Positions 7,531 through 54,861 of a stretch of DNA of 54,861 bases are shown piece after piece (within the stretch, counting starts at the first letter, position 1; the number at the start of each line of letters is the position of its first letter). Position numbers and translations under genes: made by a program. The notes beneath the pieces were generated by a model, which did no database searches, was not told the DNA's origin, and was given only the letters and a program-made list of their open reading frames with translations. This stretch comes from Anaerolineae bacterium (GTDB lineage Bacteria; Chloroflexota; Anaerolineae; CG2-30-64-16), in contig JAPKMS010000112.1 of NCBI GenBank assembly GCA_026645775.1, positions 1 to 54,861 of the forward strand. The letters run 5' to 3'.

Positions 7531-8088
7531 ATGCTCCAGTATGTTCCGGCCCTGATAATTGGCTTCGCGTTCGGCTGGCTGCTGCAGAAGGCCGGCCTGA
7601 CCAGGTACAGTAAAATCGTGAATGTCTTCCGCTTCACCGATCTGGCCGTCCTCAAGTTCATGATGTCCGCGATGGTGGTGGGGATGATCGGGGTTTACGC
7701 CCTGAAGGATTTGGGGTTGGTCAGTCTCGTTGGCACGATGCCCACTTACATCGTGGGTAACCTGGTCGGCGGCTTGATTTTCGGCGTCGGCATGGCCGGC
7801 GCCGGCTACTGACCAGGCACCTGTGCCGCCGGCGGCGGCCAAGGCAACATCGACTATATCATCCCCGGTTTCCTGGGCTTCCTGGTTGGAGCGATCCTTT
7901 TCGGCCTGACGTACCCGACGGTGTTCCCCGCGATCTCCGCGATCGCCAATCTGGGCATGGTCTACCTGGCCGAACTGCTCAACGTCAACCATTGGCTGTT
8001 TATCGCGCTCTTCGCGCTCATGACGCTCTTTTTGTTCTATGTCCTGGAAAAGAAGGGCGGGACCCGACGGGATCGGGCTGCTGAATAA
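7531..8088 (+). CDS. YeeE/YedE-family transport protein, second half, interrupted by in-frame TGA at 7810-7812 (candidate selenocysteine, or a nonsense pseudogene)
   Basis: The 93-aa ORF ends ...GVGMAGAGY-TGA. The same frame continues PGTCAAGGGQGNIDYIIPGFLGFLVGAILFG... for 92 more codons to TAA at 8086-8088. The TGA sits where the family motif G-Y-C-P-G-T has its Cys. Confidence 0.6.
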
Positions 8089-8109
8089 CAGGCCAGGTGG
8101 AGCCAGAAG

Positions 8110-21968: not shown

Positions 21969-21999
21969 GGCCCGGCTCCTCGGGTGGCTTTTGACTCCT

Positions 22000-22049
22000 A
22001 TCATACCCGATTGGTTGCGCGGGGGCAAATCGCGCACAAGACTCTTGTG
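22000..22049 (-). promoter_or_regulatory. Candidate promoter plus perfect 7-1-7 palindrome upstream of the RSH-STAND operon
   Basis: On the minus strand: TTGCCC (22023-22028), 17 nt, TATGAT (22000-22005). Palindrome CACAAGA-C-TCTTGTG at 22035-22049 lies just upstream of the -35. Confidence 0.35.
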
Positions 22050-37100: not shown

Positions 37101-37625
37101 CTCCTGCTCGATATCCAAGGGCCGCAGATTCCCCGGGCTGGCAGTGACGGCCAGAACGCGCAGCGGCAGATTGGAAACCAGTGGCTTTGCCGGTTCAGTA
37201 AGTTCGATGTAGCGAACGATCGGTGTGGTAATGGAGAGGGCGAACGGGTCGGGGCGGTCGGGTGCACGCAAATACTCCCATGGCCAATCGGCCAGTTCGG
37301 GCGCTGTTTTGTCCAGCCGCAGGCGAATGCGCAGGCCCAGGCCGCGGCGCGTCGCCTCATCGAGGCTGCGGCGCAAGCTGGCGCCCACTTGATCAGCCAG
37401 CGCCACACGGTAGAGCGTTTCGCCGAGAAGCTCCGGGGATGGCAGGGGCAGGTCACCGGCCGAACGATCGAAATATCCGGGCAAGGCCGCGAGTTCAGCC
37501 TCTGTGAAGGGAGCGGCGAAGTCTCGCACCGCTTCGCTGACAGGTGAGTTGAGCACCCGGGCCTGGTAGCCACCGGGTGCGCGGGTGATCAGTAGATCGA
37601 AATTCTCGTAGGTGAGGATCGTCAT
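34101..37625 (-). CDS. CHAT protease domain, NB-ARC/STAND ATPase and TPR-repeat protein
   Basis: Start at MTILTYENF. CHAT dyad HFIGHG (His codon 36961-36963) and LNACEAG (Cys codon 36819-36821). Walker A GMAGVGKT (36375-36404), Walker B VLCLDDFH. About 500 aa of TPR-like helical repeats. Confidence 0.85.
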   Translation of the reverse strand: MTILTYENFDLLITRAPGGYQARVLNSPVSEAVRDFAAPFTEAELAALPGYFDRSAGDLPLPSPELLGETLYRVALADQVGASLRRSLDEATRRGLGLRIRLRLDKTAPELADWPWEYLRAPDRPDPFALSITTPIVRYIELTEPAKPLVSNLPLRVLAVTASPGNLRPLDIEQEWARLQRALKPLSERRLIVLERLESATLALLQARLRGDPVHLLHFIGHGFFDQAANVGGLVFEDGEGGSDIVTASALGLLLHDHEPLRLVFLNACEAGRGGRRDPFAGVAQRLVQGGVPAVAAMQFPITDRAALILSQEFYRALADGLPADAALSEARKAIKLAGDDPAWGTPVLFSRSGDNRLIAPETAKARPGALGAPPEPQQPPGVAGFVGREQELAHFAARLAADHVAVIAGMAGVGKTVLAARLARQVAADPSRIFWHQFHEGEGIETIIWRLAGMLYRHGQMALWELLEGARQSGGQPPPAEVLLDYLVQLLRGQDYVLCLDDFHYADGDPLVEKAVERLQILLSTGEVSLIVTSRRLPTVFRDQAFAPLGGLRMEDTRALLSTRSVALAPELLAELHHHTDGNAELLTLAVHALQRSRQPAQVIKRLADEDDIETYLLQEVDRGLTTDEKLVLGGVAALLGYPGTRSAIETTLASGNLKRTLRYLANRFLLREQEGRLDHEYLTHAIVQTFYYELLSRQERQALHRRAGEYYEQEEPDALKAALHYQRAGEAERAARLATADIWAAINQGQARLLRSLLLLLSQAQLAAAASIQVQLALGEVLAFLDETEAAQAAYQAALTALHAQAATPAARAGTARACLGLGTLLANRDPETALGWIERGLAAVDAEESDLTTALYNRKGTILLGQATYGEAIAALEQALALLPPAPSQLRGAVLNNLGSAWAWAGDSARGSQYTGEAVQVSTALHDTITLLSLISNIAIDKEIGGDWAGAGADYGEALRLAEQLGSLSEQARIHSLLGILRLHQGAESAAEEHLQRAVSLSRQIRSPEHLATTLPVLAQLHIGRHAWAPARAALAEAETLATEHGWDYILPETYASLALLALGQDQPDEALAQAEHSVVSAQQLAATVEEGKGLRVKGQALARLGRPHEAAAALEASLALLADADPYEAAQTQRCLAQLSESTGEHARSLGLLNQADAAFRQLGLEPPPR

Positions 37626-37863
37626 GGCGCACCCGCCGAAGCAAGAGACATCATCTGCAGCGTGCCTTCCTGCGGAGCCCGCGCGGTCGTCGGTCAGTGG
37701 CCAGGGTCTCAATTATTGGTATGTTATTCGTGAACTTGATGGGATGAGTGTGCCACAGGAAAACATACCTGTCAAGAGGGCCAACGGCGCCTCATGTGGG
37801 CAGCCCGGCCTGGCAATTGAAGTTGCGGTCACCCTTTGCAAGTATCTGCTCAATGATCCGGGG

Positions 37864-37978: not shown

Positions 37979-39226
37979 TTGATCATAAAAATTGACGAGG
38001 CGGGGCGCCTGCAAATTCCTTCCGAAGTGGCCGCCCAATATGGTCTGCGGCCCGGCGCAACGGTGCAGATCGACGAGAGTGGCGCCGGCTTACATTTGCG
38101 CCGGCCGGTCACCAGCCTGGCCAAGCTCTACATCGAGCCGACTGTGCGCTGCAATTTGGCCTGCCGCACCTGCATCCGCAATATCTGGGATGAGCCGGGC
38201 GGCGATATGACCGATGCCACGTTTGCGCGGGTGCTGGCCGGGCTGCGCGCCCTCCCCGGAGCGGCCGAATTTCCGCCGACGATCTTCTTCGGCGGTTTCG
38301 GTGAGCCATTAACCCATCCGCACATCGTCGAGATGGCCGCCGAGATGAAGGCACTCGGCTGCCCGGTTGAGCTGATCACCAACGGGATCTTGCTGACGGA
38401 GCAAATGTCCCGCCGGCTGATTGCGGCCGGGATCGACCGGTTGTGGGTGTCGTTGGATGGCGCCCGGCCGGAGAGCTACGCCGACGTGCGTCTCGGCGCC
38501 GCGCTGCCGACCGTGCTGGCCAACGTCGGTCGCTTCAGAGACCTGCGGTCCCTCCGACGCCCGCGCCGGCCGGAGATCGGCATCGCTTTTGTTGCCATGC
38601 GGCAGAATATCACCGACCTGCCTCAGGTGCTTGCCCTGGGCGACCAATTGGGGGCTGTCCACTTCCTGGTGACTAACGTGCTGCCCTACACCGCCGAGAT
38701 GCGCAGCGAGATCCTCTATGGTCGCACCTTGACCGACATCTGTTACCTGCGCTCGCCCTGGACGCCGCGCCTGGTGCTGCCGAAAATCGACGTGGATGAG
38801 CACACGGCGGCCACGCTTTACCGGGTCATGCGCAGCGATCGCAACATCAGCTTCCTGGATTATCCCCTCAGCAGCGCCAACGATCGCTGTCCGTTTATCG
38901 AGGCCGGCGCAGCGGTGATCGGCTGGGACGGCGGCCTCAGCCCTTGTCTGCCCCTTCTGCACGATCACACCAGTTACCTGAATGATCGGGAGCGCCGTTC
39001 CCGCCGGCATATCATCGGTAAGTTATCGGAGCATAGCTTGGGCGAGTTGTGGTATGCGCCTGGGCATATCGCTTTCCGCGAGCGTGTGCAGGCTTTCGAC
39101 TTTTCCCCGTGCACCTTCTGCGGCGGCTGCGATTACAGCCTGGCCAACGAGGAGGATTGTTTCGGGAACGGGTTCCCCACGTGCGGCGGCTGCTTATGGG
39201 CGCAAGGTTTGATTCGCTGCCCGTGA
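37979..39226 (+). CDS. Radical SAM/SPASM protein with an N-terminal AbrB/SpoVT-like domain (likely tungsten-cofactor oxidoreductase maturase, Cmo-like)
   Basis: IIKIDEAGRLQIPSEVAAQYGLRPG is the AbrB-like swapped hairpin. CNLACRTC is the CX3CX2C motif. A C-terminal Cys-rich SPASM region is present (CPFIEAG..., CTFCGGCDYS, CGGC). TTG start. Adjacent to aor. Confidence 0.8.
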   Translation: MIIKIDEAGRLQIPSEVAAQYGLRPGATVQIDESGAGLHLRRPVTSLAKLYIEPTVRCNLACRTCIRNIWDEPGGDMTDATFARVLAGLRALPGAAEFPPTIFFGGFGEPLTHPHIVEMAAEMKALGCPVELITNGILLTEQMSRRLIAAGIDRLWVSLDGARPESYADVRLGAALPTVLANVGRFRDLRSLRRPRRPEIGIAFVAMRQNITDLPQVLALGDQLGAVHFLVTNVLPYTAEMRSEILYGRTLTDICYLRSPWTPRLVLPKIDVDEHTAATLYRVMRSDRNISFLDYPLSSANDRCPFIEAGAAVIGWDGGLSPCLPLLHDHTSYLNDRERRSRRHIIGKLSEHSLGELWYAPGHIAFRERVQAFDFSPCTFCGGCDYSLANEEDCFGNGFPTCGGCLWAQGLIRCP

Positions 39227-39248
39227 CCGCAGGATCGGAGGGTGCTCC

Positions 39249-39605
39249 ATGACGTTTTTGGCCAGCCCGTCAGCGCTGACCGCGCACACCAATCTGTGGA
39301 TCGAAGCGAACGGCAAGGTTGTACTGAGCCGATGGCGCGTTCAGCTCCTGGAAGCTGTGGCTGAGACCGGTTCGATCAGCGCGGCCGCGGAGCGGCTGCA
39401 GATCCAGTATCGCCTGGCCTGGGAGCGCCTGGAAGAGATGGAAGAGGGTCTCGGCACCCATCTGCTTGACCGGCACGCAGGCGGCGCAGGCGGTGGCGGC
39501 GCACAACTCACTGCGGCGGCCCTCGACCTGGTGGCACGCTTCAATCGGCTGGCCGCTGAAGTCGATGCCTGTCTTGATGAAGAATTCCGACAGGCGTTTG
39601 CGTAA
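39249..39605 (+). CDS. ModE N-terminal-like (LysR-type wHTH) regulator
   Basis: 118 aa. RVQLLEAVAETGSISAAAERLQIQYRLAWERLEEME..LG..LLDR...GGGGAQLT is the ModE N-domain pattern. No TOBE domains. Confidence 0.7.
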   Translation: MTFLASPSALTAHTNLWIEANGKVVLSRWRVQLLEAVAETGSISAAAERLQIQYRLAWERLEEMEEGLGTHLLDRHAGGAGGGGAQLTAAALDLVARFNRLAAEVDACLDEEFRQAFA

Positions 39606-39632
39606 AGCCCGCCGCCGCCCTCCTCAGATGAT

Positions 39633-39661
39633 TTGCACCTCTGGGCGCTTACGCGTATAAT
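39633..39661 (+). promoter_or_regulatory. Near-consensus sigma70-like promoter for aor
   Basis: TTGCAC (39633-39638), 17 nt, TATAAT (39656-39661). It lies ~275 nt upstream of the aor ATG. Confidence 0.5.
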
Positions 39662-39804
39662 GCTGAATGTAGGTTGACTTACGTTATTGTTGTCTGTTTA
39701 CGTTTTTGCAGGTAACCGCTAGGATACTTGCTATGCCGCACAATTCGTTCCCGCCGCTTTCATCGCACGGCCCTGGGACGATCCATTCATCTCAGGTTCC
39801 AACA

Positions 39805-39852
39805 GCCGGGGGGCGCTATGTAGAGAGAACATAGCGTTCCACGGCTTTTTTG
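39805..39852 (+). terminator. Intrinsic-terminator-like hairpin plus T6 inside the aor leader (attenuator candidate)
   Basis: GCCGGGGG-CGCTATGT-AGAGAGA-ACATAGCG-TTCCACGGC, followed by TTTTTT (39846-39851). About 16 bp pair, counting G-U pairs and one bulge. Confidence 0.5.
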
Positions 39853-39936
39853 TTGTCGGTTCTCTCACTGATTCGGCTATCTGCCGCTAACCTCTGGTCA
39901 ATATCCGTCACACATCCAATGAAGGAGGAAGCTACG

Positions 39937-41766
39937 ATGCAACTAGGTGGTTATGCTAACAAGGTCGCCTGGATCGACCTGGCTCAGGGCACGATCGAAT
40001 ACAAACCGATCGCCGAGGAAGATGCGCGCAAGTACATCGGCGCCCGGGGCCTGGGGGTGAAGTACGTCTTCGATAACGGCCCGCAGGTGGAGGCCCTTTC
40101 CCCCGACAATATCCTCTGCTTTCTGAACGGTCCCCTGACCGGGACCGATGTGAACCTGAGCGGCCGCATGGCCGTCGTCACCAAGTCGCCGCTCACCGGC
40201 ACCGTGACCGACTCGCATCACGGTGGGTGGTCGGCGGCCCGGCTCAAGTGGGCGGGGTTCGATGGCCTGGTCTTCAAGGGCAAGGCCGAAAAGCCAGTTT
40301 ATGCCTACGTGGAAAGCGGGCAGGTGACGCTGCACGATGCCAGTGATCTGTGGGGTAAGCACGTCCATGAGACGATCAAGATCCTGCAGGAACGGCACGG
40401 CGGCAAAGACCTCAGCGTCATCACCATCGGCCCCGCGGGCGAGAACCTGGTGAAGTTCGCGAACTGGATGAACGAGAATGACCGTTCCTCTGGCCGCGGC
40501 GGCACCGGCTGCGTGGGCGGCAGCAAGAACCTGAAGGCTATCGTCATCAAGGGCGTGCACAGCGATCGCCCGCGACCTGTGGACAAGGAGGCTTTCAAGG
40601 CCGCGCAGAAGGTCGCGCTGCAACAGCTCATGGATGAGCGGGTGTTGACCGCACCGCGCAAGGGTGGTTTGTCGGTTTATGGCACCAACGTGCTGACGAA
40701 TATCACGAGCAACATGGGCGCGTTGCCCACGCGTAACGCCCAGGTGACCTCGTTCGGCGAGCGCGCTGAGCTGATCAGCGGCGAGCACGTCAAGGCGACG
40801 ATCCTCGTAAACGATCCCACCTGCCATGCCTGCCCGGTGGCATGTAAGAAAGAGGTCGAGGTCAAAGAAGGGCCATTCAAGGTGCACATGGAGAGCGTCG
40901 AGTACGAACCGGCCTGGTCGGTGGGCGCCATGTGCGATAACGACGACATCGGAGCGGTTGCGTACATGATCGACCGCGCCAACGATTACGGGTTTGATGC
41001 GATCGAGATCGGCACCGTGTTGTCGATGTACATGGAATATACGCAGCGTGGCTGCGCGGTCGCCGGTGAGGGCCTGATGTGGGGTGACACGCACGGAATG
41101 GTGCGGATGGCCCACATGATCGCGTTCCGCGAAGGCGTGGGCAACATCCTGGCTGAAGGCACGGGCAAGGCCGCGGCACTGCTGGGCGTCCCGGAGCTTG
41201 GTATGCACGCCAAGGGCCAGGGCATCCCGGCTTACGACCCGCGCGGCATCAAGGGCATGGGCCTGGGTTATGCCACCTCGAACCGCGGCGCGTGCCATCT
41301 GCGCGGCTATTCGCCGGCGGCCGAGGTCGCGGGCAACGTGCTGGGGCCCGGCGGGAAAGTGGACCCGCTGGAATGGGAGGGCAAGGGCAAGCTGCTCTTC
41401 ATCTTCCAGAATGTCCACGCCATGACCGACTGCCTGGACGTGTGCAAGTTCTCCACGTTCTCCGAGTCGCTGGATTCGTTTGCTGCGCAGTTCGAGGCGA
41501 TCACCGGGCTGCCCTGCACCGCAGGCGATTTGTTGACTGCCGGCGAGCGGGTGTACAACCTGGAGCGCTACTACAACAATCTGAACGGCTTCCGCGAGGG
41601 CAGCGACACTCTGCCCAAGCGGTTCCTGGAGGAAGCCTCCACCATGCCCGGCTCCAAGGGCCATGTCTGTGAGCTGGACCAGATGCTGGCCGAGTACTAC
41701 GAAGCACGCGGCTGGGTGAACGGTGTGGTGCCCGAGGCCAAGCTGAAGGAATTGGGGATCATCTAG
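39937..41766 (+). CDS. aor: Tungsten-containing aldehyde:ferredoxin oxidoreductase (AOR family)
   Basis: Start at MQLGGYANKVAWIDL, with GAAGGAGGAAG as RBS. AOR N-domain blocks GARGLG, GPLTGT..SGR..VVTKSPLTG. 4Fe-4S Cys residues in C.AC..ACKK. GIPAYDPRG..G.GLGYATSNRGACH. Confidence 0.9.
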   Translation: MQLGGYANKVAWIDLAQGTIEYKPIAEEDARKYIGARGLGVKYVFDNGPQVEALSPDNILCFLNGPLTGTDVNLSGRMAVVTKSPLTGTVTDSHHGGWSAARLKWAGFDGLVFKGKAEKPVYAYVESGQVTLHDASDLWGKHVHETIKILQERHGGKDLSVITIGPAGENLVKFANWMNENDRSSGRGGTGCVGGSKNLKAIVIKGVHSDRPRPVDKEAFKAAQKVALQQLMDERVLTAPRKGGLSVYGTNVLTNITSNMGALPTRNAQVTSFGERAELISGEHVKATILVNDPTCHACPVACKKEVEVKEGPFKVHMESVEYEPAWSVGAMCDNDDIGAVAYMIDRANDYGFDAIEIGTVLSMYMEYTQRGCAVAGEGLMWGDTHGMVRMAHMIAFREGVGNILAEGTGKAAALLGVPELGMHAKGQGIPAYDPRGIKGMGLGYATSNRGACHLRGYSPAAEVAGNVLGPGGKVDPLEWEGKGKLLFIFQNVHAMTDCLDVCKFSTFSESLDSFAAQFEAITGLPCTAGDLLTAGERVYNLERYYNNLNGFREGSDTLPKRFLEEASTMPGSKGHVCELDQMLAEYYEARGWVNGVVPEAKLKELGII

Positions 41767-41785
41767 CCCATCCTCAGGCAGAGCG

Positions 41786-41829
41786 GGCCGGCGGCGAGAA
41801 ACCAGGTTTTTCGCCGCCGGCCTTGTTTT
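41786..41829 (+). terminator. Rho-independent terminator after aor
   Basis: GGCCGGCGGCGA (41786-41797), loop, TCGCCGCCGGCC (41811-41822), then TTGTTTT. Confidence 0.6.
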
Positions 41830-41918
41830 AGCGCGGCGGTTGGAAATCCGTCCGGTTTGTGATAGTATACCGCCGCCCAATCCGGGCATCTCTTCAGCTA
41901 GATCGGGAAGGCGAATCG

Positions 41919-42179
41919 ATGATCGTCGTCGAAGTGCGTTTTTTTGGTGGCCAGCACCTGTTCACGCGCCGGCTCAGCCCGGAGATCGAACGCGGCCTAC
42001 CGAACGTGACGCTCCCCGACGGCGCAACCGCCGATGATTTGCTCAAGCTTCTCGGCATCCCAACCGGCGCCGGCCGGCCGTTTGTCAGCGTAAATCGTTT
42101 TGTGCGCCGCGATAACGTGCTCCTTGCAGATGGTGACAAGGTGCAGCTCATTGCTACAGTGCTCGGTGGTGCACGCTAA
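41919..42179 (+). CDS. MoaD/ThiS-like ubiquitin-fold sulfur carrier with a GG-AR C-terminus
   Basis: 86 aa from MIVVEVRFFGG. It ends ...DGDKVQLIATVLGGAR*. The beta-grasp pattern is present, with the Gly-Gly followed by two extra residues. Confidence 0.55.
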   Translation: MIVVEVRFFGGQHLFTRRLSPEIERGLPNVTLPDGATADDLLKLLGIPTGAGRPFVSVNRFVRRDNVLLADGDKVQLIATVLGGAR

Positions 42180-42204
42180 TACTCCCGAGACGGAGGTGAA
42201 ATTC

Positions 42205-43062
42205 ATGGCAAGATTCGATTACGTGCGAGCCCATTCCATTGCGGAAGCGCTCCAACTTCTCGGCGAGGCAGGGCTGATCAGCCGCCCGCTGGCGGGCGGG
42301 ACCGATGTGATGGTCTTTGTCCGGAATGAGAAGCCGCCCTTCGACCGGCTGGTCGACATCAGCCGTGTCCCGGAGATGAAGATCATCGAACGCCGCGGGG
42401 ATGAGGTCTTCATCGGCGCCGCGGTGACCTTCACTGAGGCGGAGCAGAACGCACTGCTGCGCGAGGTGGCGGGTTGCCTGGCCGAGGCGTGCCGGTCGGT
42501 GGGCGGGCCTGCCGTCCGCAACGCCGGGACGCTGGGCGGCAACGTCGCCAACGCCGCCGCGTGCGCGGACTCCCTCCCCGCGTTGGCCTGTCTGGACGCC
42601 GTGGCCCATGTCCGTAGCCTGACGGGCGAGCGGTCCTTTCTCCTCAATGAGCTGATCCAGGGCGCCAACCGCACCGCCATCCGGCCCGGCGAGCTGCTAA
42701 CCCACTTCACCTTCCCCGTGCCGCCTGCGGGCGTCCGCTCGGCGTTCCTCAAGCTGGGGCGGCGTAACGCGCAAGCCATTTCCCGGTTGAGCATGGCCGC
42801 GGCAGGCCGCCTGGATGCGGCGGGCCGCGTCGACTACGCGCGGCTGGCTCCCGGCGCCGCAATGCCGCGGCCGCAGCGCTTCACCGAGGTCGAAGCCCTG
42901 CTGCTGGGGCAGGCGCCCACTGACGAGTTGTTGGCTGCCGCGGGCGCCAAGACCGCCGAAGTGATGATCGGCGTCACCGGCCGCCGGTGGTCCACGGAGT
43001 ACAAGGAAATTGCGATCCAGGCCATGGCCGAGCAGACGCTGCGCCGTGTGTTGTGCCAGTGA
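42205..43062 (+). CDS. FAD-binding subunit of a xanthine dehydrogenase/CO dehydrogenase-family molybdoenzyme (CoxM/XdhB-like)
   Basis: MARFDYVRAHSIAEALQLL...LAGGTDVMV...GAAVT...RNAGTLGGNVANA. GGAGGTG RBS. Confidence 0.85.
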   Translation: MARFDYVRAHSIAEALQLLGEAGLISRPLAGGTDVMVFVRNEKPPFDRLVDISRVPEMKIIERRGDEVFIGAAVTFTEAEQNALLREVAGCLAEACRSVGGPAVRNAGTLGGNVANAAACADSLPALACLDAVAHVRSLTGERSFLLNELIQGANRTAIRPGELLTHFTFPVPPAGVRSAFLKLGRRNAQAISRLSMAAAGRLDAAGRVDYARLAPGAAMPRPQRFTEVEALLLGQAPTDELLAAAGAKTAEVMIGVTGRRWSTEYKEIAIQAMAEQTLRRVLCQ

Positions 43063-43073
43063 AAGGTGTTCCG

Positions 43074-43547
43074 ATGCTGATTGAATTCACCCTCAACTAT
43101 CAACCGATTGCGATCGAAGCGCCGCCCGATGTCACACTGCTGCATCTGCTGCGCGACCACCTCAACCTGACGGGCGCCAAGGAAGGCTGCTCGGTGGGCG
43201 AGTGCGGCGCCTGCTCGGTGATTATGGATGGCCGGCTGGTGAACAGTTGTCTCGTCTTGGCCCCGCAGGCACATGGCAGCGAGATCATCACCATCGAGGG
43301 CATCCACGCTCCCGACGGCGGGCCGAACGATTTGCAGGAAAACTTCATCACTTACGGCGCCGTGCAATGCGGCATCTGCATCCCCGGCATGGTGGTCGCC
43401 GGCGAGGCGCTGCTGATGCGGACGCTGACCCCCACGCGCACCGAAATCCGCACTGCGCTGGCCGGTAATCTGTGCCGCTGCACTGGCTACCAGCAGATCG
43501 TGGATGCGATTGAGGCGACGGCGGTGCAGAGGAGGCAGGCATCATGA
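43074..43547 (+). CDS. 2Fe-2S subunit (CoxS/XdhC-small-like)
   Basis: GCSVGECGACSVIMDG..VNSCL and QCGICIPG...NLCRCTGY are the two [2Fe-2S] motifs. Confidence 0.9.
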   Translation: MLIEFTLNYQPIAIEAPPDVTLLHLLRDHLNLTGAKEGCSVGECGACSVIMDGRLVNSCLVLAPQAHGSEIITIEGIHAPDGGPNDLQENFITYGAVQCGICIPGMVVAGEALLMRTLTPTRTEIRTALAGNLCRCTGYQQIVDAIEATAVQRRQAS

Positions 43548-45871
43548 CAGAACTCCAATATATCGGCAAACCGGCCCGACGCGTCGACGCGCTGGAGAAG
43601 GTGATGGGGAAGGCGAAATACATTGCTGACCGCAAGCTGCCGGGGATGCTTCACGCGCGCTGTCTGCGCAGCGAGGCGCCGCACGCCCTGATCAAGAAGC
43701 TGGACGTGACGCCCGCACTGGCGGTGCCCGGCGTGCGCGCGGTGATCACCAGCGAGGACTTCTTCGAGCACAGCCTCTTCGGGTTCCCGGTCAAGGACGA
43801 GTACGTCCTGGCGTACCGTAAGGTGCGCTACGTGGGTGAGGCGATCGCGGCGGTGGCCGCCGACACGCCCGAGGCCGCGCTGGCCGGCGTGCAGGCGATC
43901 GTGTGCGAGCTGGAGCCGCTGCCCGGCGTCTTCGATATGGAACACGCGCTGGATCCCGACGCGGCCCAGGTCGGCCCGGACCGGCCCGATGATCAGCATC
44001 CTAACTTCCTTGACTTACTCATCGTGCGCCAGGCCGATCCTCTGGCTGAGATCGAGCAGTGTGCGGTGAAGCTGGATGAGCGCTATTCGGTCGGCCCGCA
44101 GGAACATGCGTACATTGAACCCGAGGGCGCGCTGGCCGTGCCGACGCGCGAGGGTGGCGTGCTGGTCTACGCGCCGAACCAGAGCCCGTTCGTCAACTAC
44201 GGCGTCCTGGCCATGGTGCTCGACCTGCCGCATAACCTGGTGCGCGTGATCCAGCCGCCGGTGGGCGGCTCCTTCGGCGGCAAGGACGACCAAATCTACC
44301 AGATGTCGGCGCAGGTGGCGAAGCTGGCACTGCTCACCGGGAAGCCCGTGCGCCTGGTCTACAGCCGGGAGGAGAGCCTCATCTCCAGCTACAAGCGCGA
44401 TCCGATGCATATCCGCATCCGGCTTGGGGCTGACAGCGACGGCACGCTGCGCGCGGTCAAGTTTGAAGGGTTGATGGACTCGGGCGCGTATGCCTCCGAG
44501 AGCACCTTCACCGCCTGGCGCGGCAGCATCCATGCGATGGGCGCGTATCGCTACAACGCTTGTGCAGTGGACATCAAGTGCGTGTACACCAACAACGGCT
44601 ATTACGGTGCGTTTCGGGGCTTCGGAAACACCGAGGTGTGTGCGGGCATCGAGCAGGCGATTGATGAGCTGGCGTGTGCGGTGGGCATGGATCCGCTGGA
44701 TTTCCGCCTGAAGAACTGCCTCCACGTCGGCGACCGGACCGCACACGGCCAGATCCTGACCGAGTCGGTGGGGCTGCCCGATTGCATTAAGACCGTGCGG
44801 CGGCTCAGCGATTGGGATCGCAAGCGCGCAGCGTATGCGAACCAGACGGGGAATATCCGCCGGGGCATCGGGGTGGCGGCGCTCTATCATGGCACGTCGC
44901 TGGGGGCCGAGGGCGCGGACTATGCGGGCAGCACCATCGCCGTGGAGCAGAACTACAGCATCGACTTGACCTCGGGCCTGACCGATTACGGCACCGGCTC
45001 GCGTACGGTCTTCACGCTGATCGCGGCCGAAGAGTTGGGGGTAAGCCCTGACCGTATCCACATGCAGCGGCCCGACACCGACACCGCGATCGAGTCCGGC
45101 CCGACGGTGGCCAGCCGCTCGACGATGCTGGGCGGCAACGCGGCACGCGTCGCGGCGGACAACCTGCGGCAGACCCTCGACTATGCCGCGGCCGACCTGC
45201 TGGGCTGCGAGCTGCACCAGCTCGTCCGCAGCGGCGAGGCGTACGTCGGCCCCGACGAAGAGCCGGTGGCCTGGGAACGGGTCGTGGATCACGCCCGCGA
45301 GATGGGGCTGGCGCTGTCGGCGCACGGCAAGTGGACCGCGCCGAGGATCGAGTGGGATCACCATCACGGCACGGGCACACCCTATATGGCCTATCACTTT
45401 GCGTCCCAGGTGGCCGAGGTGGAAGTCGACATGCGCACCGGGGTCGTACAGGTAGTCAACTTCTGGGCCGTGCACGATCCGGGCAAGGTGATCTTCCCCC
45501 AGGGCGCGTACGGCCAGGTCTACGGCGGCGTGGCCCAGGGGCTGGGCTATGCGCTGATGGAGCAGATCACCTACACAAACGGCTATCTGCAAGAGACTAA
45601 CTTCGAGTCGTATCTGATCCCGACCTCAGTGGATGTGCCGGAGATCACCGCGCAGTTCGTGGAGGCGCCGTTCTCCAAGGGCCCCTATGGCGCCAAGAAC
45701 ATCGCCGAGCCTTCAATGGTGCCCGCGGCGCCCGCGATCCTGAACGCGATCTATCACGCCACGGGCAAGCGCGTGCGTGATCTGCCGGCCAACCTGGAGC
45801 GCGTGCTGCTGGGCCACGATCTGGCAAAGGGTGGATCGGCCAAGGCGTGCAAGCTGGGGCTCAAAACCTAG
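43544..45871 (+). CDS. Molybdopterin-binding large subunit (aldehyde oxidase/xanthine dehydrogenase family)
   Basis: 775 aa. a/b-hammerhead N-terminus (GKPARRVDALEKVMGKAKYIAD), GGSFGGK, GFGNTE.. and C-terminal ...PYGAKNIAEPSMVPAAPAILNAI. ATGA overlap with the 2Fe-2S gene. Confidence 0.9.
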   Translation: MTELQYIGKPARRVDALEKVMGKAKYIADRKLPGMLHARCLRSEAPHALIKKLDVTPALAVPGVRAVITSEDFFEHSLFGFPVKDEYVLAYRKVRYVGEAIAAVAADTPEAALAGVQAIVCELEPLPGVFDMEHALDPDAAQVGPDRPDDQHPNFLDLLIVRQADPLAEIEQCAVKLDERYSVGPQEHAYIEPEGALAVPTREGGVLVYAPNQSPFVNYGVLAMVLDLPHNLVRVIQPPVGGSFGGKDDQIYQMSAQVAKLALLTGKPVRLVYSREESLISSYKRDPMHIRIRLGADSDGTLRAVKFEGLMDSGAYASESTFTAWRGSIHAMGAYRYNACAVDIKCVYTNNGYYGAFRGFGNTEVCAGIEQAIDELACAVGMDPLDFRLKNCLHVGDRTAHGQILTESVGLPDCIKTVRRLSDWDRKRAAYANQTGNIRRGIGVAALYHGTSLGAEGADYAGSTIAVEQNYSIDLTSGLTDYGTGSRTVFTLIAAEELGVSPDRIHMQRPDTDTAIESGPTVASRSTMLGGNAARVAADNLRQTLDYAAADLLGCELHQLVRSGEAYVGPDEEPVAWERVVDHAREMGLALSAHGKWTAPRIEWDHHHGTGTPYMAYHFASQVAEVEVDMRTGVVQVVNFWAVHDPGKVIFPQGAYGQVYGGVAQGLGYALMEQITYTNGYLQETNFESYLIPTSVDVPEITAQFVEAPFSKGPYGAKNIAEPSMVPAAPAILNAIYHATGKRVRDLPANLERVLLGHDLAKGGSAKACKLGLKT

Positions 45872-45905
45872 CGCCTCGATCGAGCGCGATTGACGGCAGG
45901 CTGAT

Positions 45906-45947
45906 GCGGGTTCCCGCGCCATTAGGCATGAGAACCCGCTCTTTTTT
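45906..45947 (+). terminator. Rho-independent terminator after the molybdoenzyme operon
   Basis: GCGGGTTC (45906-45913), 18-nt loop, GAACCCGC (45932-45939), then TCTTTTTT. Confidence 0.55.
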
Positions 45948-46005
45948 GCCTGTCACTTTGTAAGCTTAAAGAATTGGACAAAAGCCCTCGCGGCCGGGAC
46001 GCGCT

Positions 46006-46033
46006 TTGACATTTGTGTGATCGAACATATAAT
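46006..46033 (+). promoter_or_regulatory. Consensus-like sigma70 promoter for the S8 protease gene
   Basis: TTGACA (46006-46011), 16 nt, TATAAT (46028-46033). Confidence 0.5.
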
Positions 46034-46110
46034 CCCTGCGTCTTTTCAGGCAGCAGCGTCGCTCTTGACTGGACAGTGCAATCCCCATCTTTTCCCACAC
46101 GGAGGTTGTC

Positions 46111-47298
46111 ATGCAGTCCAAGAGGTTCCTCGTTGTCAGCATTCTGTTCGTTCTGATCCTGGCCGCTGCCAGTCCGGCTTTTGCCGTGGGCAACGGACCC
46201 GTGGCGCCACTCATCGGTCAAGATGCCCCCGGCGCGATCCCGGGCCGCTACATTGTTGTTCTGAAGGCTGATGTTGGGACTGATGCAGCGGAAGCGGCCA
46301 TTGAAGCGGCGACGCGTGCGGGCGGAAATCTGCATTTCCGCTATTCTGAAGTCTTGAACGGGTTTGCGATCACTCTGCCTGATCGGGCTGTGGAAGCGCT
46401 GCGCAATAACCCACATGTAGATTACATTGAAGCCGACTCAGTCGTTAGCATCGACACAACGCAAACCGGCGCCACATGGGGCATAGACCGGATCGACCAG
46501 CGGGCGCTGCCGTTGAGCACCACCTACACCTACAACTACACCGGTGCGGGCGTCACGGCGTACATCATCGACACCGGCATCTTGATCACGCACAGCGAGT
46601 TCGGCACTCGGGCCACCTACGGCTATGACGCGGTGGATGGCTCTCTGCCTGCTGCGGACTGCAACGGCCATGGCACGCACGTTGCGGGCACCGTGGGCGG
46701 CAGCACCTACGGCGTGGCCAAGGGCGTGAACCTGGTGGCCGTGCGCGTCCTGGACTGCGCCGGCTCCGGCACCACCACCGGTGTCATCGCCGGCATCGAT
46801 TGGGTGACGAGCAACCATACGACGGGCGCGGCAGTGGCGAACATGAGCCTGGGTGGCAGCGCTTCGACGGCGCTGGACACTGCCGTGAAGAATTCTATCG
46901 CCGATGGCGTGGTTTACGCCGTGGCGGCCGGTAACAACAACAGGAAAGCATGCAACTACTCGCCGGCGCGCGTGCCTGAGGCGATCACGGTGGGCGCGAC
47001 CACCAACACCGATGCCCGCGCCTCCTACTCGAATTACGGCACCTGTCTTGATATCTTTGCGCCGGGCTCCAGCATCACGTCGTCCTGGTACACCAGCACC
47101 ACCGCCACCAACACGATTAGCGGCACGAGCATGGCAACCCCACACGTTGCCGGTGCGGCAGCACTGTATAAGCAGGCGAATCCCAGCGCGACGCCCCAGC
47201 AGGTGCGCGATGCCTTGGTGAACAACGCCACCAGCAACGTCGTCATTAACCCTGGTGTAGGCTCGCCCAACAAGTTGCTCTACACGCTGTTCTTCTAA
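46111..47298 (+). CDS. Secreted subtilisin-family (S8, proteinase K-like) serine protease with an I9 propeptide
   Basis: Signal peptide. The catalytic triad is present ([28 protein letters not shown]). Confidence 0.9.
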
Positions 47299-49907: not shown

Positions 49908-50031
49908 TCGTCAGAATCAGGCAGTGCCCTACGTCTGCCTGATTCATGGTACAACATTTGCTCGATTATCCAAAAACAAGACGGCAGGGCGAACGCCTGC
50001 CGTCGTTGCTGTTTTTGAGTGGGAAGACGAC

Positions 50032-51258
50032 TTACTTGCCCGTGCGCCGTGTGTACACGTCGAAGATCACGGCCGCTACCAGCACAAGGCCGCGGACAAC
50101 GTATTGCAGGGAAGCGTCGGTGTTCATGAGGCTCATGCCGCTGGTCAGGGACATATAGACCAACGCGCCGATGAGCGACCCCATGATCGTGCCGACGCCG
50201 CCGGCCGGCGATGCGCCGCCGATGAAGGCCGAGGCGATGGCGTCCAACTCGAAGCCGTTTCCTGCCGTGGGTGTCGCCGCTTGCAGGCGAGCTGCAAACA
50301 AGACGCCCGCCAGGGCGGCCAGCAGGCCCATCGAGGCGAAAACAAACAGGGTGATGCGCTTGACGTTGATACCGCTCAACTGCGCCGCTTCCGGGTTGCC
50401 ACCGATCGCGTAGATGTGCCTGCCCAGGACCGTCTGTGTCGTCATGAACTGGTAGACGGCTACGACGACCAACATGATGACCGCCGTCCAGGAGAGGCCA
50501 TTGTAGCCCGCGAGCACCCACGTGATGGCGCCAAGCACAACCGCGATAAAGACCAACTTCAGGATGAACAAACTTGGCGGCGTAACCTCAAAGCCGTAGG
50601 CTTGCTTTTTCCGGCGGCTGTTGATGTCGCTCACGATGAACAAGACGATCGCCGCCAGGCCGAGGAGCAGGGTCAGTTTGTGGACTCCCGGCAAAAACAG
50701 GCTGTTAGCAGGGAAGATGTCGGGAATGTAGCCATTGCCGAGCGCATTGAAGGATTTGTCGGTAATGATGACCGTGCCCGGACCGGCCAGTGTCAGAGAC
50801 AGCAGCCCTCGGTAAACCAACCAGCCGCCGAGCGTGGCGACAAAGGCGGGAATGCCCACCCACGCTACCAGGAGGGCCGTCACCGTTCCTGCCACAACGC
50901 CCATCGCCAATGCCATGAGGATGACGAGGTACCAGGGCAGGTGCGCCTGCGTCATGCCGAGGGTCGCAACCGCAGCGAGGAAACCTGACAGAAAACCGAC
51001 CGACAGGTCGATATGCCGGATGACGATGACAAGCGTCATGCCGGTTGCCAGAACGGCGATATAGCCCATCTGGTTCAGCAAGTTGGCGATGTTTCGGGGC
51101 CCGATAAAGAGGCCGTTCGTCCGAATGGTGAAGAACAACACGATTACAACCAAGGCAATGTACATGCCGTAGTCACGGGCGTTCGTCCGGACCATTTTCC
51201 CCAGACTTTGCAAGAACGACGGCTTGGCCTGGACTTTTTCAGCCTGACGAGAAGTCAT
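50032..51258 (-). CDS. Monosaccharide ABC transporter permease (XylH/GguB/MmsB-like)
   Basis: 408 aa, polytopic. Conserved ...AIGGNPEAAQLSGINV... loop of the ribose/xylose-type permease family. Confidence 0.9.
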   Translation of the reverse strand: MTSRQAEKVQAKPSFLQSLGKMVRTNARDYGMYIALVVIVLFFTIRTNGLFIGPRNIANLLNQMGYIAVLATGMTLVIVIRHIDLSVGFLSGFLAAVATLGMTQAHLPWYLVILMALAMGVVAGTVTALLVAWVGIPAFVATLGGWLVYRGLLSLTLAGPGTVIITDKSFNALGNGYIPDIFPANSLFLPGVHKLTLLLGLAAIVLFIVSDINSRRKKQAYGFEVTPPSLFILKLVFIAVVLGAITWVLAGYNGLSWTAVIMLVVVAVYQFMTTQTVLGRHIYAIGGNPEAAQLSGINVKRITLFVFASMGLLAALAGVLFAARLQAATPTAGNGFELDAIASAFIGGASPAGGVGTIMGSLIGALVYMSLTSGMSLMNTDASLQYVVRGLVLVAAVIFDVYTRRTGK

Positions 51259-51380: not shown

Positions 51381-53942
51381 TTAGCTCGTAGCCAACTGCA
51401 TGATCTTCTCTTGCGTCGCTTCCTCGATCGGCAGCTCGCCGGTGACCCTGCCTGCTGAGACGACGTACACCCGGTCACTCATGCCGAGAACTTCGGGCAG
51501 CTCGGACGAGATCATGATGATGCTCATGCCTTCCTGGACCAGTTTGGCCATAATCGTGTAAATCTCGTACTTGGCGCCCACATCGATGCCGCGCGTTGGT
51601 TCGTCCAGGATCAGCAGATCGGGCTTGACAAACAGCCACTTGGCAATGCAGACCTTCTGCTGGTTGCCGCCGCTGAGGTTCCCCACCTTCTGCTCGATGC
51701 TCGGCGTCTTGATGTTGAGCGAACGCCGGTATTCCTCCGCGATCTTGATCTCGGCATTGCTATCAACGACACCGCGCCGGGCGATTTCCTGCAAGTTCGC
51801 CAGCGTCGTGTTCTGCTTGATGTCCTGGATCAGAATCAGGCCGGCAGCCTTGCGGTCTTCGGTCGCGTAGGCCATGCCTGCAGCGATGGCGTCATGTGGA
51901 TGGCTGAAGTGCTGCTGCTTGCCGCTGACCCACATTTCACCTTCGGTCCGGTAAGCTTTTGAATTGCCAAACAGGCTCAGGGCCAACTCGGTCCGCCCGG
52001 ATCCCATTAAGCCCGCAATGCCGACGATCTCGCCCTTCCTGACGGTGAAGTTCACATCGTGGAGGATATCCCGACCCAATGCAGGATCGAAGGCGTTCCA
52101 GTTCTTGACCTCGAGCACGATCTCCCCGCCGCCCTGTGGGCAGATGATGAGAACTTTGATGCCCTTGCCTAACAGCGCTTTGACGTTCGCTTTCTCTTTG
52201 GCCGCGTCGCCCTGGCTGAAAAGGATTTCGACGTTGTAGCCGGCCGCTCGGAAGGCATCTTGAAAGCGTTTTTGATCCTGGATCCAGCGCGGTTCATCCT
52301 GGGTTGGGAGGACGACGCCCACGACGGGATTGCCCGACGGCGCAGGCGCACGGGAAGCACTGGCCTCGCTCGCGCCGGCGTAGTAACCGGAGTCGATCAG
52401 GGTTGCTTTGACATTCGCCTTGTCTACGGAGACGACCGCCGACTGAAGCGCGGGGACGTCAAGCGCACCATTGTTGTAACTGCCGTTCACCGCAGGAGCC
52501 TGGCCCTTGAGCAGCGCTACGGCAGCGTCGACGGCGGTCTGCACTAGGGTGCGGACGTCTTTGAAGACGGTCATGGACTGCTTGCCGTCCAGGATGGCGC
52601 GGGCGGAAGCTTCCTCAGCGTCCATGCCGGTGATCAGGCAGCTCTTCACATCCTGATCGGCAGCGAACACCTCAGCAATCGTGCGCGCGGTGTTATCGTT
52701 GGGGGCGAGGACAAAGACGTGGCCTTTATCGGCCGCGCTGACCAGGGCCAGATTGGACTGCGCCAAGTTCCGGGCCGTGCGGGGGTCCCAGTTGGTGGTG
52801 ACCTGGCGAATAATCGCGTTCTGCTGCTCGCGCGTCAGGACGGCGTTCCCCTGGAGGCTGACAGCCTGGCTTGAGTTCTTAATGACGAAAGTGCCGTCGG
52901 CGATCTTGGGTTGAAGAACACCCCACGCGCCCCCTAAGAGATAGAAAGAGTTGTTGTCAGTTGAGGCGCCAGCATAGAGATACAGCGGATTGCCTTTGCC
53001 CGTCGCATGGTTGACCAGATACTGCGCCTGCTGTGCTCCGACGGCGGGGCTGTCAAAGGTCACGTAGTAGTCCACCGCCTTGGTGTCGGTGATCAGCCGG
53101 TCATACGCGATGACCTTCACGCCGGCCGCTTGGGCTTCCTCCACGACCGCGGCCGCGGCCCGGAACGGGCTGCGTTGGCGTTGCGGGTAGATATTGTTGA
53201 TTTCGCGGCCGACCATGTGCTTGATCAGCACAGGTTCGGTCACTTGGCCCTTGTGAGCATCCAGTGTGGTAATCGTCTGGCCGTCGCGCAGGACTGTGAC
53301 GGTATCTGCAATGGCGATGACTTCCTTCAGCTTGTGCGAAATCATCACGCACGAGACGCCGTGCTCTTTCAGATCACGGATCAAGTTCAACAGGTTTTCG
53401 CTGTCGTCCTCGTTTAAGGCGGCGGTCGGCTCATCCAGGATGAGCAATTTCACATCCTTGCTCAGCGCCTTGGCAATCTCGATCAGTTGCTGCTTGCCCA
53501 CGCCCAGATCTTTGACCTTCGTCTCCGGGTTGACGTTGAGTCTGACTCTCTTGAGCGCTTCGGTCGCCCGCTTGATGGTCTCATTCCAGTCAACGATGAA
53601 GCCTCTTTTGATTTCATTGCCGAGAAAAATATTCTCGTAGACCGTCATTTCGGGGACGAGCGCTAACTCTTGATAGATGATGGCGATGCCGACCTTCTCG
53701 CTGTCGGCGATACCCGAGAATTTCTGCACTTGCCCATTGAAAAGAATGTCCCCGTCGTAGGTACCATGCGGATAGACCCCGCTGAGGACCTTCATAAGGG
53801 TCGACTTGCCGGCGCCATTTTCGCCCACGAGGCAGTGGATCTCACCCGCGGCGACTTGAAAGCTCACGTTGCTCAAGGCTTTCACGCCGGGGAAAGTCTT
53901 GGTGATGTTCTTCATCTCTAGGATGGGTGGTTGTTCAGGCAT
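51381..53942 (-). CDS. Sugar ABC transporter ATPase (two NBDs, MglA/XylG/GguA-like) carrying an in-frame, circularly permuted type-I substrate-binding-protein domain between the NBDs
   Basis: NBD1 has GENGAGKST and LLILDEPTAAL. NBD2 has GLMGSGRTEL, LSGGNQQKV and LLILDEPTRGID. Residues ~260-603 (nt 52134-53165) are homologous to the neighbouring binding protein, in the order C-part, linker, N-part. Confidence 0.85.
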   Translation of the reverse strand: MPEQPPILEMKNITKTFPGVKALSNVSFQVAAGEIHCLVGENGAGKSTLMKVLSGVYPHGTYDGDILFNGQVQKFSGIADSEKVGIAIIYQELALVPEMTVYENIFLGNEIKRGFIVDWNETIKRATEALKRVRLNVNPETKVKDLGVGKQQLIEIAKALSKDVKLLILDEPTAALNEDDSENLLNLIRDLKEHGVSCVMISHKLKEVIAIADTVTVLRDGQTITTLDAHKGQVTEPVLIKHMVGREINNIYPQRQRSPFRAAAAVVEEAQAAGVKVIAYDRLITDTKAVDYYVTFDSPAVGAQQAQYLVNHATGKGNPLYLYAGASTDNNSFYLLGGAWGVLQPKIADGTFVIKNSSQAVSLQGNAVLTREQQNAIIRQVTTNWDPRTARNLAQSNLALVSAADKGHVFVLAPNDNTARTIAEVFAADQDVKSCLITGMDAEEASARAILDGKQSMTVFKDVRTLVQTAVDAAVALLKGQAPAVNGSYNNGALDVPALQSAVVSVDKANVKATLIDSGYYAGASEASASRAPAPSGNPVVGVVLPTQDEPRWIQDQKRFQDAFRAAGYNVEILFSQGDAAKEKANVKALLGKGIKVLIICPQGGGEIVLEVKNWNAFDPALGRDILHDVNFTVRKGEIVGIAGLMGSGRTELALSLFGNSKAYRTEGEMWVSGKQQHFSHPHDAIAAGMAYATEDRKAAGLILIQDIKQNTTLANLQEIARRGVVDSNAEIKIAEEYRRSLNIKTPSIEQKVGNLSGGNQQKVCIAKWLFVKPDLLILDEPTRGIDVGAKYEIYTIMAKLVQEGMSIIMISSELPEVLGMSDRVYVVSAGRVTGELPIEEATQEKIMQLATS

Positions 53943-53998: not shown

Positions 53999-54120
53999 CT
54001 ACGGCTGGTTTGCTTACGCAAGCAAACCAGCCGTAGATTTGCGTTCGCAAAGACCCTGCCTGTGAAGGGTCGCGCCCCCTCTCCCGTTATCCTTCGCTAC
54101 GTGAAGGCCAGGAGAGGGGG
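53999..54120 (-). repeat. Two strong stem-loops between the binding-protein gene and the ATPase gene
   Basis: CTACGGCTGGTTTGCTT-ACGC-AAGCAAACCAGCCGTAG (53999-54036, 17 bp perfect). CCCCCTCTCC...GGAGAGGGGG (54075-54120), with an inner CCTTC/GAAGG pair. Confidence 0.5.
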
Positions 54121-54132
54121 CAGGAGGGTCTG

Positions 54133-54861
54133 TTATTGCAAGCCCGTGAAGTCGCCAGCCTGGTAATAGCCGGAGTCAACCAAGGCCGCTTTGACGTTTT
54201 CCTTGGTGACGGTGACAATGGCGGACGGCTTCGCCGGCACATCGATCTTGCCGTTATTGTAGGTTGTCGTCTTCTCCGGGGTCTGACCGGCGAGGAAGGC
54301 GTTGGCCGCGGCGACGGCATCGGCCGCCAGAGTGCGGACATCCTTGAAGACGGTCATCGACTGCTTGCCGTCGATGATGTACTGCACGGAGGCCTTCTCG
54401 GCGTCCTGGCCGGTGATGAAGTACTTCGTGACATCCTTGTCGGTGCCGAAGACATCGGCGATGGCACGGGCGGTGCCGTCGTTGGGGCCGAGGATGTAGA
54501 CGGTGCCCTTATCGGCCGTGGTGGCCGTGGTCAGGTTGGCCTCGGCGATGCTCTTGGCAGCGTTGAAGTCCCAGTTCGTGGTGACCTGGCCGATGATCTT
54601 GGCTTCTTCATCGCGGGTCAGCGTAGCCTTGCCCTGCAGGGTGATGGCCTCGGGGGAGTTCTTGATGACGAAGGTGCCATCGGCGATCTTGGGCTGGATT
54701 TTTTCCCAGGCGCCTTCGAAGAAGATGAAGGCGTTGTTGTCGGTGGCTGCGCCGGCGTACAGATAGAGCGGATTGCCCTTGGTGTCCCCGGCCTGCTTGA
54801 TCAGGTATTCGCTCCAGGCGGCGCCCACGGCCATGCTGTCGAAGGTGACGTAGTAATCGAC
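54133..54861 (-). CDS. Sugar ABC transporter substrate-binding protein (ChvE/MmsA-like), 5' end outside the window
   Basis: Open to the window edge: VDYYVTFDSMAVGAAWSEYL...GNPLYLYAGAATDNNA...FVIKNS...VTTNWD...GPNDGTARAI...DGKQSMTVFKDVRTLA...LVDSGYYQAGDFTGLQ*. Confidence 0.85.
   Translation of the reverse strand, partial: VDYYVTFDSMAVGAAWSEYLIKQAGDTKGNPLYLYAGAATDNNAFIFFEGAWEKIQPKIADGTFVIKNSPEAITLQGKATLTRDEEAKIIGQVTTNWDFNAAKSIAEANLTTATTADKGTVYILGPNDGTARAIADVFGTDKDVTKYFITGQDAEKASVQYIIDGKQSMTVFKDVRTLAADAVAAANAFLAGQTPEKTTTYNNGKIDVPAKPSAIVTVTKENVKAALVDSGYYQAGDFTGLQ

Follow-up and report, generated by a model that had tools for sequence, protein, structure and literature searches.

A sugar importer operon at the end of a Chloroflexota contig

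We analysed a 54,861-bp metagenomic contig of an Anaerolineae bacterium (Chloroflexota; assembly GCA_026645775.1, contig JAPKMS010000112.1), which is referred to below, in its entire length, as the window. Three consecutive genes on its minus strand form an importer operon of the ATP-binding cassette (ABC) type and encode the C-terminal 242 residues of a ChvE-like extracellular binding protein identified by profiles (54133–54861, cut at the contig end), an 853-residue GguA-type ATPase with two nucleotide-binding domains (NBDs) in tandem (51381–53942), and a GguB-type permease of 408 residues (50032–51258; NCBIfam GguB, 420 bits, and Pfam BPD_transp_2). The subject of this report is a 345-residue insert between the two NBDs of the ATPase, the sequence of which matches a complete sugar-binding protein in circularly permuted order.

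The binding-protein gene comes first and the permease gene last, and the same chvE-gguA-gguB order was found at five loci with an insert-bearing ATPase (L001, L002, L083, L084 and L085). Since the contig ends within a repeated gene, as would be expected of short-read assembly, and the syntenic locus L085 encodes a 729-residue two-domain binding protein at this position, the truncated binding protein of the window is probably a tandem-domain protein in its full length. The 190-bp gap between the binding-protein and ATPase genes contains a perfect 17-bp stem-loop with a 4-nt loop (53999–54036, minus strand), with no clear T-tail on the coding strand. It is possibly an intercistronic stabiliser or attenuator, and as an intercistronic hairpin it may raise expression of the binding protein relative to the membrane components. 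A terminator-like hairpin followed by a T-run lies directly after the permease stop codon (49980–50004, minus strand) and probably marks the operon end.

A permuted binding-protein domain between the NBDs

The ATPase gene is an uninterrupted open reading frame, the product of which was matched by the GguA profile (NCBIfam NF040905) and, in Pfam, by two ABC_tran domains and Peripla_BP_4. NBD1, together with the native start of the inter-NBD linker, occupies residues 1–260 (53163–53942, minus strand, as are all parts of this gene), and NBD2 occupies residues 606–853 with the stop codon (51381–52127). In NBD1 the Walker A is canonical (GENGAGKS) and the signature degenerate (LGVGKQQ), with LLILDEPT as Walker B and ISHK as H-loop; in NBD2 the Walker A (GLMGSGRT) and the H-loop (SSEL) are degenerate, the signature is canonical (LSGGNQQ) and the Walker B again reads LLILDEPT. 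Such a single-chain pair of NBDs, in which one ATP site is consensus and the other degenerate, is the CUT2 arrangement; as in CUT2 operons, the same strand also encodes a ChvE-type binding protein and GguB. NBDs, motif pattern and operon order are thus shared with the GguA/XylG/RbsA ATPases and the ChvE/XylF systems, but the ordinary CUT2 ATPases are ~500 residues long with an inter-NBD linker of ~10 residues, at the place where the window protein carries its 345-residue insert. Because of the insert, the GguA match was split in two and fell below the equivalog cut-off (759.3 versus 810 bits). Profile positions 1–252 aligned with residues 7–258, the RbsA and LsrA profiles picked up again past the insert at about residue 624–627, and ordinary ATPases retrieved in a search of representative sequences realigned from residue 604–606. 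NBD1 and NBD2 were 81% and 72% identical, respectively, to those of the uninterrupted GguA of Ornatilinea apprima. NCBI annotates members of the insert-bearing family merely as "ATP-binding cassette domain-containing protein".

With its boundaries refined against the Ornatilinea protein, the insert extends from R261 to G605 (52128–53162). Its first segment (residues 261–523, 52374–53162) corresponds to native binding-protein positions ~69–320 and consists of the remaining N-lobe, the entire C-lobe and the native C-terminal tail DSGYYAG, which ends at residue 523 (nucleotide 52374). A Ser/Ala/Pro linker, ASEASASRAPAPSG (residues 524–537, 52332–52373), joins this native C-terminus to the native mature N-terminus, which opens the second segment (residues 538–605, 52128–52331). 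The latter contains β1-α1-β2-α2-β3 of the N-lobe and ends in ...KVLIICPQGG, corresponding to the native ...ICPQDG. Residues 264–522 matched ChvE profile positions 69–320 and residues 539–605 matched Peripla_BP_1 positions 2–68, indicating that the chain order is permuted and that the binding-protein fold is complete.

The original prediction, which was made from the letters of the window, had described an in-frame, permuted binding-protein domain without a signal peptide at this place. The open frame and the profiles that break off and resume around the insert bear this out, and the coordinates given there were right within a few nucleotides: NNIYPQRQRSP corresponds to residues 249–259, AAAVVEE... 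begins at residue 263 (nucleotide 53156), and NPVVGVV...ICPQ spans residues 538–603 (52134–52331). It had also held that the permutation brings the new termini together, and they do fall in a former three-residue loop (native ...ICPQ-DGT-AAAA...). Finally, it had ruled out a fresh assembly duplication of the neighbouring gene, and rightly so: in BLASTP the truncated binding protein aligned with ATPase residues 290–521 at 62% identity over 233 residues (E = 5e-98) and the DNA identity was 70%, a likeness far above chance and well short of a recent copy.

The closest solved structure was 4RXU, the carbohydrate-binding protein CAUR_1924 of Chloroflexus aurantiacus (E = 3.8e-138), residues 99–361 of which align with insert residues 3–265, and residues 15–94 with insert residues 264–343. 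The ChvE profile (NF040907) scored 219 bits on the insert against a cut-off of 460, and Pfam Peripla_BP_4 matched it at 1.4e-35. As judged from sequence and model, the insert has the two-lobe α/β fold and the sugar-pocket residues of the ChvE-type class I binding proteins; it lacks their linear topology, signal peptide or lipobox and extracytoplasmic place, being embedded in a cytoplasmic ATPase. In an alignment of 45 sequences the Ser/Ala/Pro linker was variable in sequence and almost constant in length, and both junctions were nearly free of insertions and deletions. The connectors from insert to ATPase have only 1–3 residues each, and the C-terminal junction lies 2–3 residues before β1 of NBD2.

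Origin of the insert from a tandem binding-protein gene

In the classical model, circular permutants derive from tandem duplicates. At four of the loci the insert-bearing ATPase gene is directly preceded by a gene for two to three near-identical ChvE-like domains in frame (L001:5699–7774, L002:4531–7752, L083:7625–9814 and L085:7712–9901), which are joined by an Ala/Pro-rich linker and repeat with a period of 342–348 residues. The second copy in L001 is truncated, and the binding protein of L084 has a single domain. A 758-residue tandem reading frame also lies upstream of the uninterrupted GguA gene in Ornatilinea apprima (L003), a cultured isolate of the Anaerolineae, and further tandem binding proteins (P0121, P0122 and P0123) form 50%-identity clusters of their own. 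Domains were 95–100% identical within each tandem protein and 72–90% identical between species, pointing to concerted evolution by recurrent recent duplication or continuing gene conversion.

The insert aligned with P0121 in one colinear stretch running over the domain boundary (58% over 338 residues, E = 6e-129), and likewise in one colinear stretch with the Ornatilinea tandem protein (69% over 334 residues). Its length of 345 residues falls within the range of the tandem period, and the distance from GYY to VG(V/I)VLPT is 19 residues in the insert and 20–22 in the tandem proteins. In many family members the linker opens with the native C-terminal tail (...DSGYYQASDFTG...). ASEASASRAPAPSG is thus the homologue of the linker that separates the domains in the tandem binding proteins. 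At the insertion site, the Ornatilinea GguA linker reads NIYPPKEHQVF/DEVVFEARNW and the window protein reads NIYPQRQRSPF/R-AAAAVVEE...KVLIICPQ-GG/GEIVLEVKNW (slashes mark the insertion point and the two junctions), while the native binding protein reads ...ICPQ-DGT-AAAAAAE.... The R or K at position 261 stands at the native T, and the final GG at the native DG, so that by this comparison the insert is exactly one repeat period from which no residue was lost.

A tandem in-frame duplicate of the parent domain is present, and a single period of it, linker included, is colinear with the permuted insert. This indicates that the insert arose by permutation through duplication and that the tandem intermediate is still encoded next door. 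In the proposed course of events, the upstream binding-protein gene of an ancestor in Chloroflexota would have become an in-frame tandem of near-identical domains, and one tandem period would have been copied into the short NBD1–NBD2 linker of gguA. The copied piece would begin at the T of the loop ...ICPQ-DG/T-AAAA... of one domain and end at the DG of that loop one domain further on. A slice of one period, wherever it is cut from a tandem, is circularly permuted, and the product would therefore be a complete two-lobe binding-protein fold. We hold the anatomy and the origin described here to be very nearly certain.

An altered chain order in a sugar-binding-protein fold is reported for Tp0684/MglB-2 of Treponema pallidum (PMC4990184). 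Tp0684 remains an extracellular receptor, whereas here the permutant has moved into another protein and the tandem intermediate is still in the operon. The tandem ChvE-like proteins also resemble GlnPQ of Lactococcus in having several binding domains per polypeptide. The two domains of GlnPQ, however, belong to class II and are fused to the permease outside the cell, whereas the tandem here is a free receptor of the lipoprotein type and the template for an intracellular copy.

Conservation and distribution of the insert family

A search covering 5.8 billion protein clusters retrieved no fewer than 120 that share the architecture (clustering at 90% identity), 74–94% identical to the window protein over ~100% of its length. 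They have the same Pfam architecture and are 844–870 residues long, except for two truncated entries of 805 and 831 residues. The clusters derive from NCBI, JGI, ENA and Logan assemblies, including contigs of 0.1–2 Mb, and the few source names attached to them are Anaerolineae, Caldilineales and Chloroflexi bacterium. Among 1.84 billion representatives at 50% identity, a single one (P0060) had this architecture among the 150 matches listed, below which distant families with a similar insert could rank. P0060 was followed by multi-domain binding proteins and then by ordinary ~500-residue ATPases with at most 57% identity. A scan of genome contigs with generic Walker A and signature patterns listed 80 loci, none of which carried the insert, and thus gave no named isolate for the family; the same scan yielded Ornatilinea apprima, which represents the pre-insertion state.

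In a neighbour-joining tree of the NBDs, calculated with the insert removed and without bootstrap, all insert-bearing proteins formed one clade, the nearest outgroups of which were the insert-free GguA proteins of Ornatilinea apprima and of a metagenome-assembled genome of the Chloroflexales. This single clade and the single representative at 50% identity indicate that the insertion occurred once, within Chloroflexota (Anaerolineae/Caldilineales). Pairwise Nei-Gojobori estimates for six genes, which are rough with dS near saturation, gave dN/dS of 0.10–0.22 for the insert, 0.03–0.09 for NBD1, 0.05–0.12 for NBD2 and 0.2–1.7 for the linker. The insert is under purifying selection, and the family members examined contained no stop codons or frameshifts. 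Inserts were 65–90% identical among themselves and 55–74% identical to the extracellular domains, which in turn were 72–90% identical among themselves; the extracellular domains nearest to the inserts were those of 4RXU and Ornatilinea. These values indicate that the insert is a separate lineage that evolves somewhat faster.

The original prediction had named misassembly and a dead rearrangement product as ways in which it could fail, and had proposed a search for orthologues with the same insertion. Such orthologues are plentiful, as described above. An assembly chimera might be suspected, since the metagenomic contig ends in the repeated binding-protein gene, so that repeats do disturb assembly at this locus. 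The same junctions recur, however, in the at least 120 clusters from independent assemblies, and the insert shares only 70% of its DNA sequence with the neighbouring gene. A pseudogene is contradicted by the intact reading frames and the dN/dS of the insert. The chance of either artefact is negligible.

Predicted fold and sugar pocket of the insert

In 156 of 173 columns with at least 95% conservation among the extracellular binding proteins, the majority residue is the same in 115 inserts. The pocket was mapped through the E. coli ribose-binding protein (RBP), the sequence of which was verified against 2DRI and 1URP. For the N-lobe, a profile alignment paired RBP N13 with E550, F15 with R552, F16 with W553, N64 with C601, D89 with D281 and R90 with R282; for the C-lobe, motif alignment by eye gave the pairs N190 and N415, D215 and D441, and Q235 and K461. 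N13, F15, F16, D89, R90, N190, D215 and Q235 are the RBP residues that we take to bind ribose. The positions of the pocket motifs (E550-P551-R552-W553, Y280-D281-R282, D329/N331, W385, P414-N415-D416, D441, Q455-S-M-T458 and K461-D462) were invariant in 114–115 of the 115 inserts and identical to those of 13 extracellular domains. Twenty residues invariant in the binding proteins and lost in the inserts cluster at 359–399, outside the pocket motifs, a pattern that would fit release from docking on the permease.

An AlphaFold2 model built from the 45-sequence alignment gave a pLDDT of 85–96 for the insert and below 50 for the linker, with the strand-helix order of a class I binding protein. The second segment was predicted to form strands at 541–545, 571–575 and 597–600 and helices at 551–566 and 580–592. 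The best Foldseek match in the PDB was again 4RXU, with a target-normalised TM-score of 0.72, which is about the value expected for a target of which ~76% can be aligned sequentially; only the larger insert segment could be aligned in this way. The fold recovery that the original prediction had asked for was therefore obtained.

Placed on this fold, the permutation cut would lie in the three-residue loop after β3 of the N-lobe, 2–5 residues past the equivalent of RBP N64. The new termini would stand side by side in the former β3-α3 loop, on the cleft-facing rim that the C-terminal edge of the sheet forms. Mechanical coupling between lobe closure and NBD movement is likely, because the connectors are so short and the C-terminal one runs straight into β1 of NBD2.

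Possible function of the insert

In the explanation that we prefer, the insert, having no signal peptide, would lie in the cytoplasm, tied to the ATPase by its 1–3-residue connectors, and would bind the sugar or sugars imported by its own transporter. Closing on internal sugar would alter the freedom or geometry of both NBDs and would most likely throttle ATP hydrolysis once free sugar accumulates, a trans-inhibition like that of MetNI and ModBC, exerted by a domain that descends from the binding protein of the same transporter. That the pocket residues are fully conserved adds plausibility to an allosteric sugar sensor, which had been offered as speculation in the original prediction. We consider it rather probable that the insert still binds sugar. 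That the sugar-bound form inhibits the ATPase is a tentative suggestion on which we would put somewhat less than even weight. The explanation as a whole, from anatomy and origin to predicted sugar sensing and a throttled ATPase, appears to us evenly poised between right and wrong.

Several points weigh against a sensor of this kind. The evolutionary rate of the insert is about twice that of the NBDs, and only K479, D507 and F564 are conserved specifically in inserts, which gives no clear sign of a new NBD-facing interface. The overall pTM of the AlphaFold2 model was only 0.61, and the model does not settle how the domain sits against the NBDs or how accessible its cleft is. In addition, extracellular sugar-binding proteins usually bind with sub-micromolar to micromolar affinity. 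An unchanged pocket of such affinity would saturate at very low internal sugar, and so tight a sensor would suit a plain feedback valve poorly, unless its affinity is reduced by the tether at the cleft rim.

The evolution of the insert, faster than that of both the NBDs and the extracellular binding proteins, would also suit a domain that has kept its fold and lost its sugar sensing. It could then act as a spacer, scaffold or docking platform that holds the NBDs in register or recruits a partner, for example a transcription factor or an ABC-like histidine-kinase system. Recruitment of MalT by MalK is a precedent for partner docking, and L001, L002 and L085 encode an NBD-histidine kinase fusion together with a permease and a response regulator just upstream. 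However, the histidine-kinase system is missing from the flanks of L083 and L084, both of which have the same insert, the binding-protein residues lost in the insert spare the pocket motifs, and the near-complete invariance of the pocket is hard to explain without ligand binding. We consider this role unlikely. Alternatively, the insert may take part in the transport cycle itself, as an internal acceptor of released sugar or as a feed-forward activator of ATP hydrolysis. Its pocket is the same as that of the extracellular protein, so that high affinity for the same sugar is expected; the connectors leave from the cleft rim, so that NBD movements and lobe closure should be coupled; and the C-terminal junction immediately precedes β1 of NBD2, the domain that contributes the degenerate Walker A. 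On the other hand, such a mechanism has no precedent, and a single acceptor site per transporter would bring no net thermodynamic gain unless coupled to ATP hydrolysis. A role of this type is in our view quite improbable. Its specific version, in which the insert takes sugar from the inward-facing permease and is opened and closed mechanically by NBD dimerisation, we rate as very improbable; if it held, the importer would have a binding protein at work on either side of the membrane.

Relation to known systems

To our knowledge, post-translational regulation of ABC importers has been established for few systems, namely MetNI, ModBC, MalK with EIIAGlc, and OpuA, and we know of no importer that is controlled via a binding-protein fold or within a CUT2 sugar ATPase. 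Neither a permuted binding-protein insert in an ABC ATPase nor a similar architecture was found described in open-access papers and bioRxiv, an absence that is no proof of novelty. In the LacI/GalR repressors, the class I binding-protein fold acts as a cytoplasmic sugar sensor fused to an effector, and Pfam Peripla_BP_1 covers both these repressors and binding proteins. The LacI-type proteins have linear topology and an N-terminal DNA-binding domain, whereas here the fold is permuted and inserted into an enzyme. Insertion of permuted domains is also used in engineered switches, such as those of maltose-binding protein and β-lactamase, and in fluorescent sensors based on binding proteins. They follow the same design logic, in which a hinge domain is joined to an output domain via close termini near the cleft; they are laboratory constructs, whereas the present case is natural and conserved and has an ABC ATPase as the output domain.

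The C2 domain of MetNI binds methionine and the C-terminal domain of ModBC binds molybdate or tungstate, and NBD movement is thereby restricted (PMC10710835). The window protein resembles these ATPases in carrying an extra cytoplasmic domain on the NBD subunit, in its case a 345-residue domain unrelated to NBDs. The MetNI and ModBC domains are small C-terminal appendages with ACT-like or TOBE-like folds that dimerise across two identical NBD subunits. The insert, in contrast, is a 345-residue binding-protein fold from the system's own receptor, located internally, between NBD1 and NBD2 of one chain, and trans-inhibition by it is only proposed.

The family can be described as an ABC importer ATPase with an added domain of regulatory type and an unusually clear evolutionary history. 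The locus keeps all stages from the single domain through the in-frame tandem to the one-period permutant and its insertion into another protein. This route is a textbook one but rarely documented, and with the tandem next door and a cultured pre-insertion relative it could be reconstructed experimentally. A built-in sugar sensor, if true, would be a new solution for transporter control. As a natural counterpart of the engineered switches, the insert could guide biosensor design or provide a sugar-reading ATPase, and it bears on how asymmetric ABC ATPases may be controlled via the inter-NBD linker and the degenerate ATP site.

Other genes at the related loci and in the window

Upstream of the binding-protein gene, at a place that in the window would lie past its right end, three loci encode a sensory module that resembles an ABC importer (L085:2624–7485, L001:2634–5387 and L002:221–4120). 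Its parts are a separate 344-residue binding protein, a response regulator of REC-GerE-REC type, a CUT2-type permease (BPD_transp_2) and a ~530-residue protein that joins one ABC NBD to HisKA_3 and HATPase_c. L083 and L084 lack the module in their flanks, and no account of an NBD fused to a histidine kinase was found in open-access papers and bioRxiv.

The search of representative sequences also gave a 794-residue tandem-NBD CUT2 ATPase of a low-GC organism (P0236), which carries an unpermuted Peripla_BP_4 domain at its C-terminus (residues 516–758) and has no signal peptide. It may be an independent, convergent fusion of ATPase and binding protein. Since no relatives of its C-terminal domain came up in a search, it may stand alone or result from faulty gene calling, and it was not used as support.

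Elsewhere in the window, a gene cluster for molybdenum or tungsten enzymes (37979–47298 together with 485–1792) encodes a radical SAM/SPASM protein (37979–39226), an aldehyde:ferredoxin oxidoreductase (39850–41766), the FAD-binding (42100–43062) and molybdopterin-binding (43544–45871) subunits of a xanthine-dehydrogenase-family enzyme and MoeA (485–1792), along with a subtilase unrelated to the molybdenum and tungsten genes (46111–47298). Neither the enzyme genes of this cluster nor MoeA gave a pointer to the sugar specificity of the transporter. At 7114–10266 (minus strand), a 1050-residue open reading frame with no Pfam match at E ≤ 1e-5 overlaps one of 742 residues on the opposite strand, and either could be the gene. 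A 1203-residue protein with CHAT protease-like, AAA_16 and MalT-like TPR regions (34101–37712, minus strand) adjoins a 2040-residue protein with at least nine FG-GAP repeats (27943–34065, minus strand). Finally, a 1138-residue open reading frame (18621–22037, minus strand) combines a RelA/SpoT-like region and TGS with a STAND-type NTPase (nSTAND1/AAA_16), an unusual joining of alarmone-enzyme domains to a signalling NTPase.

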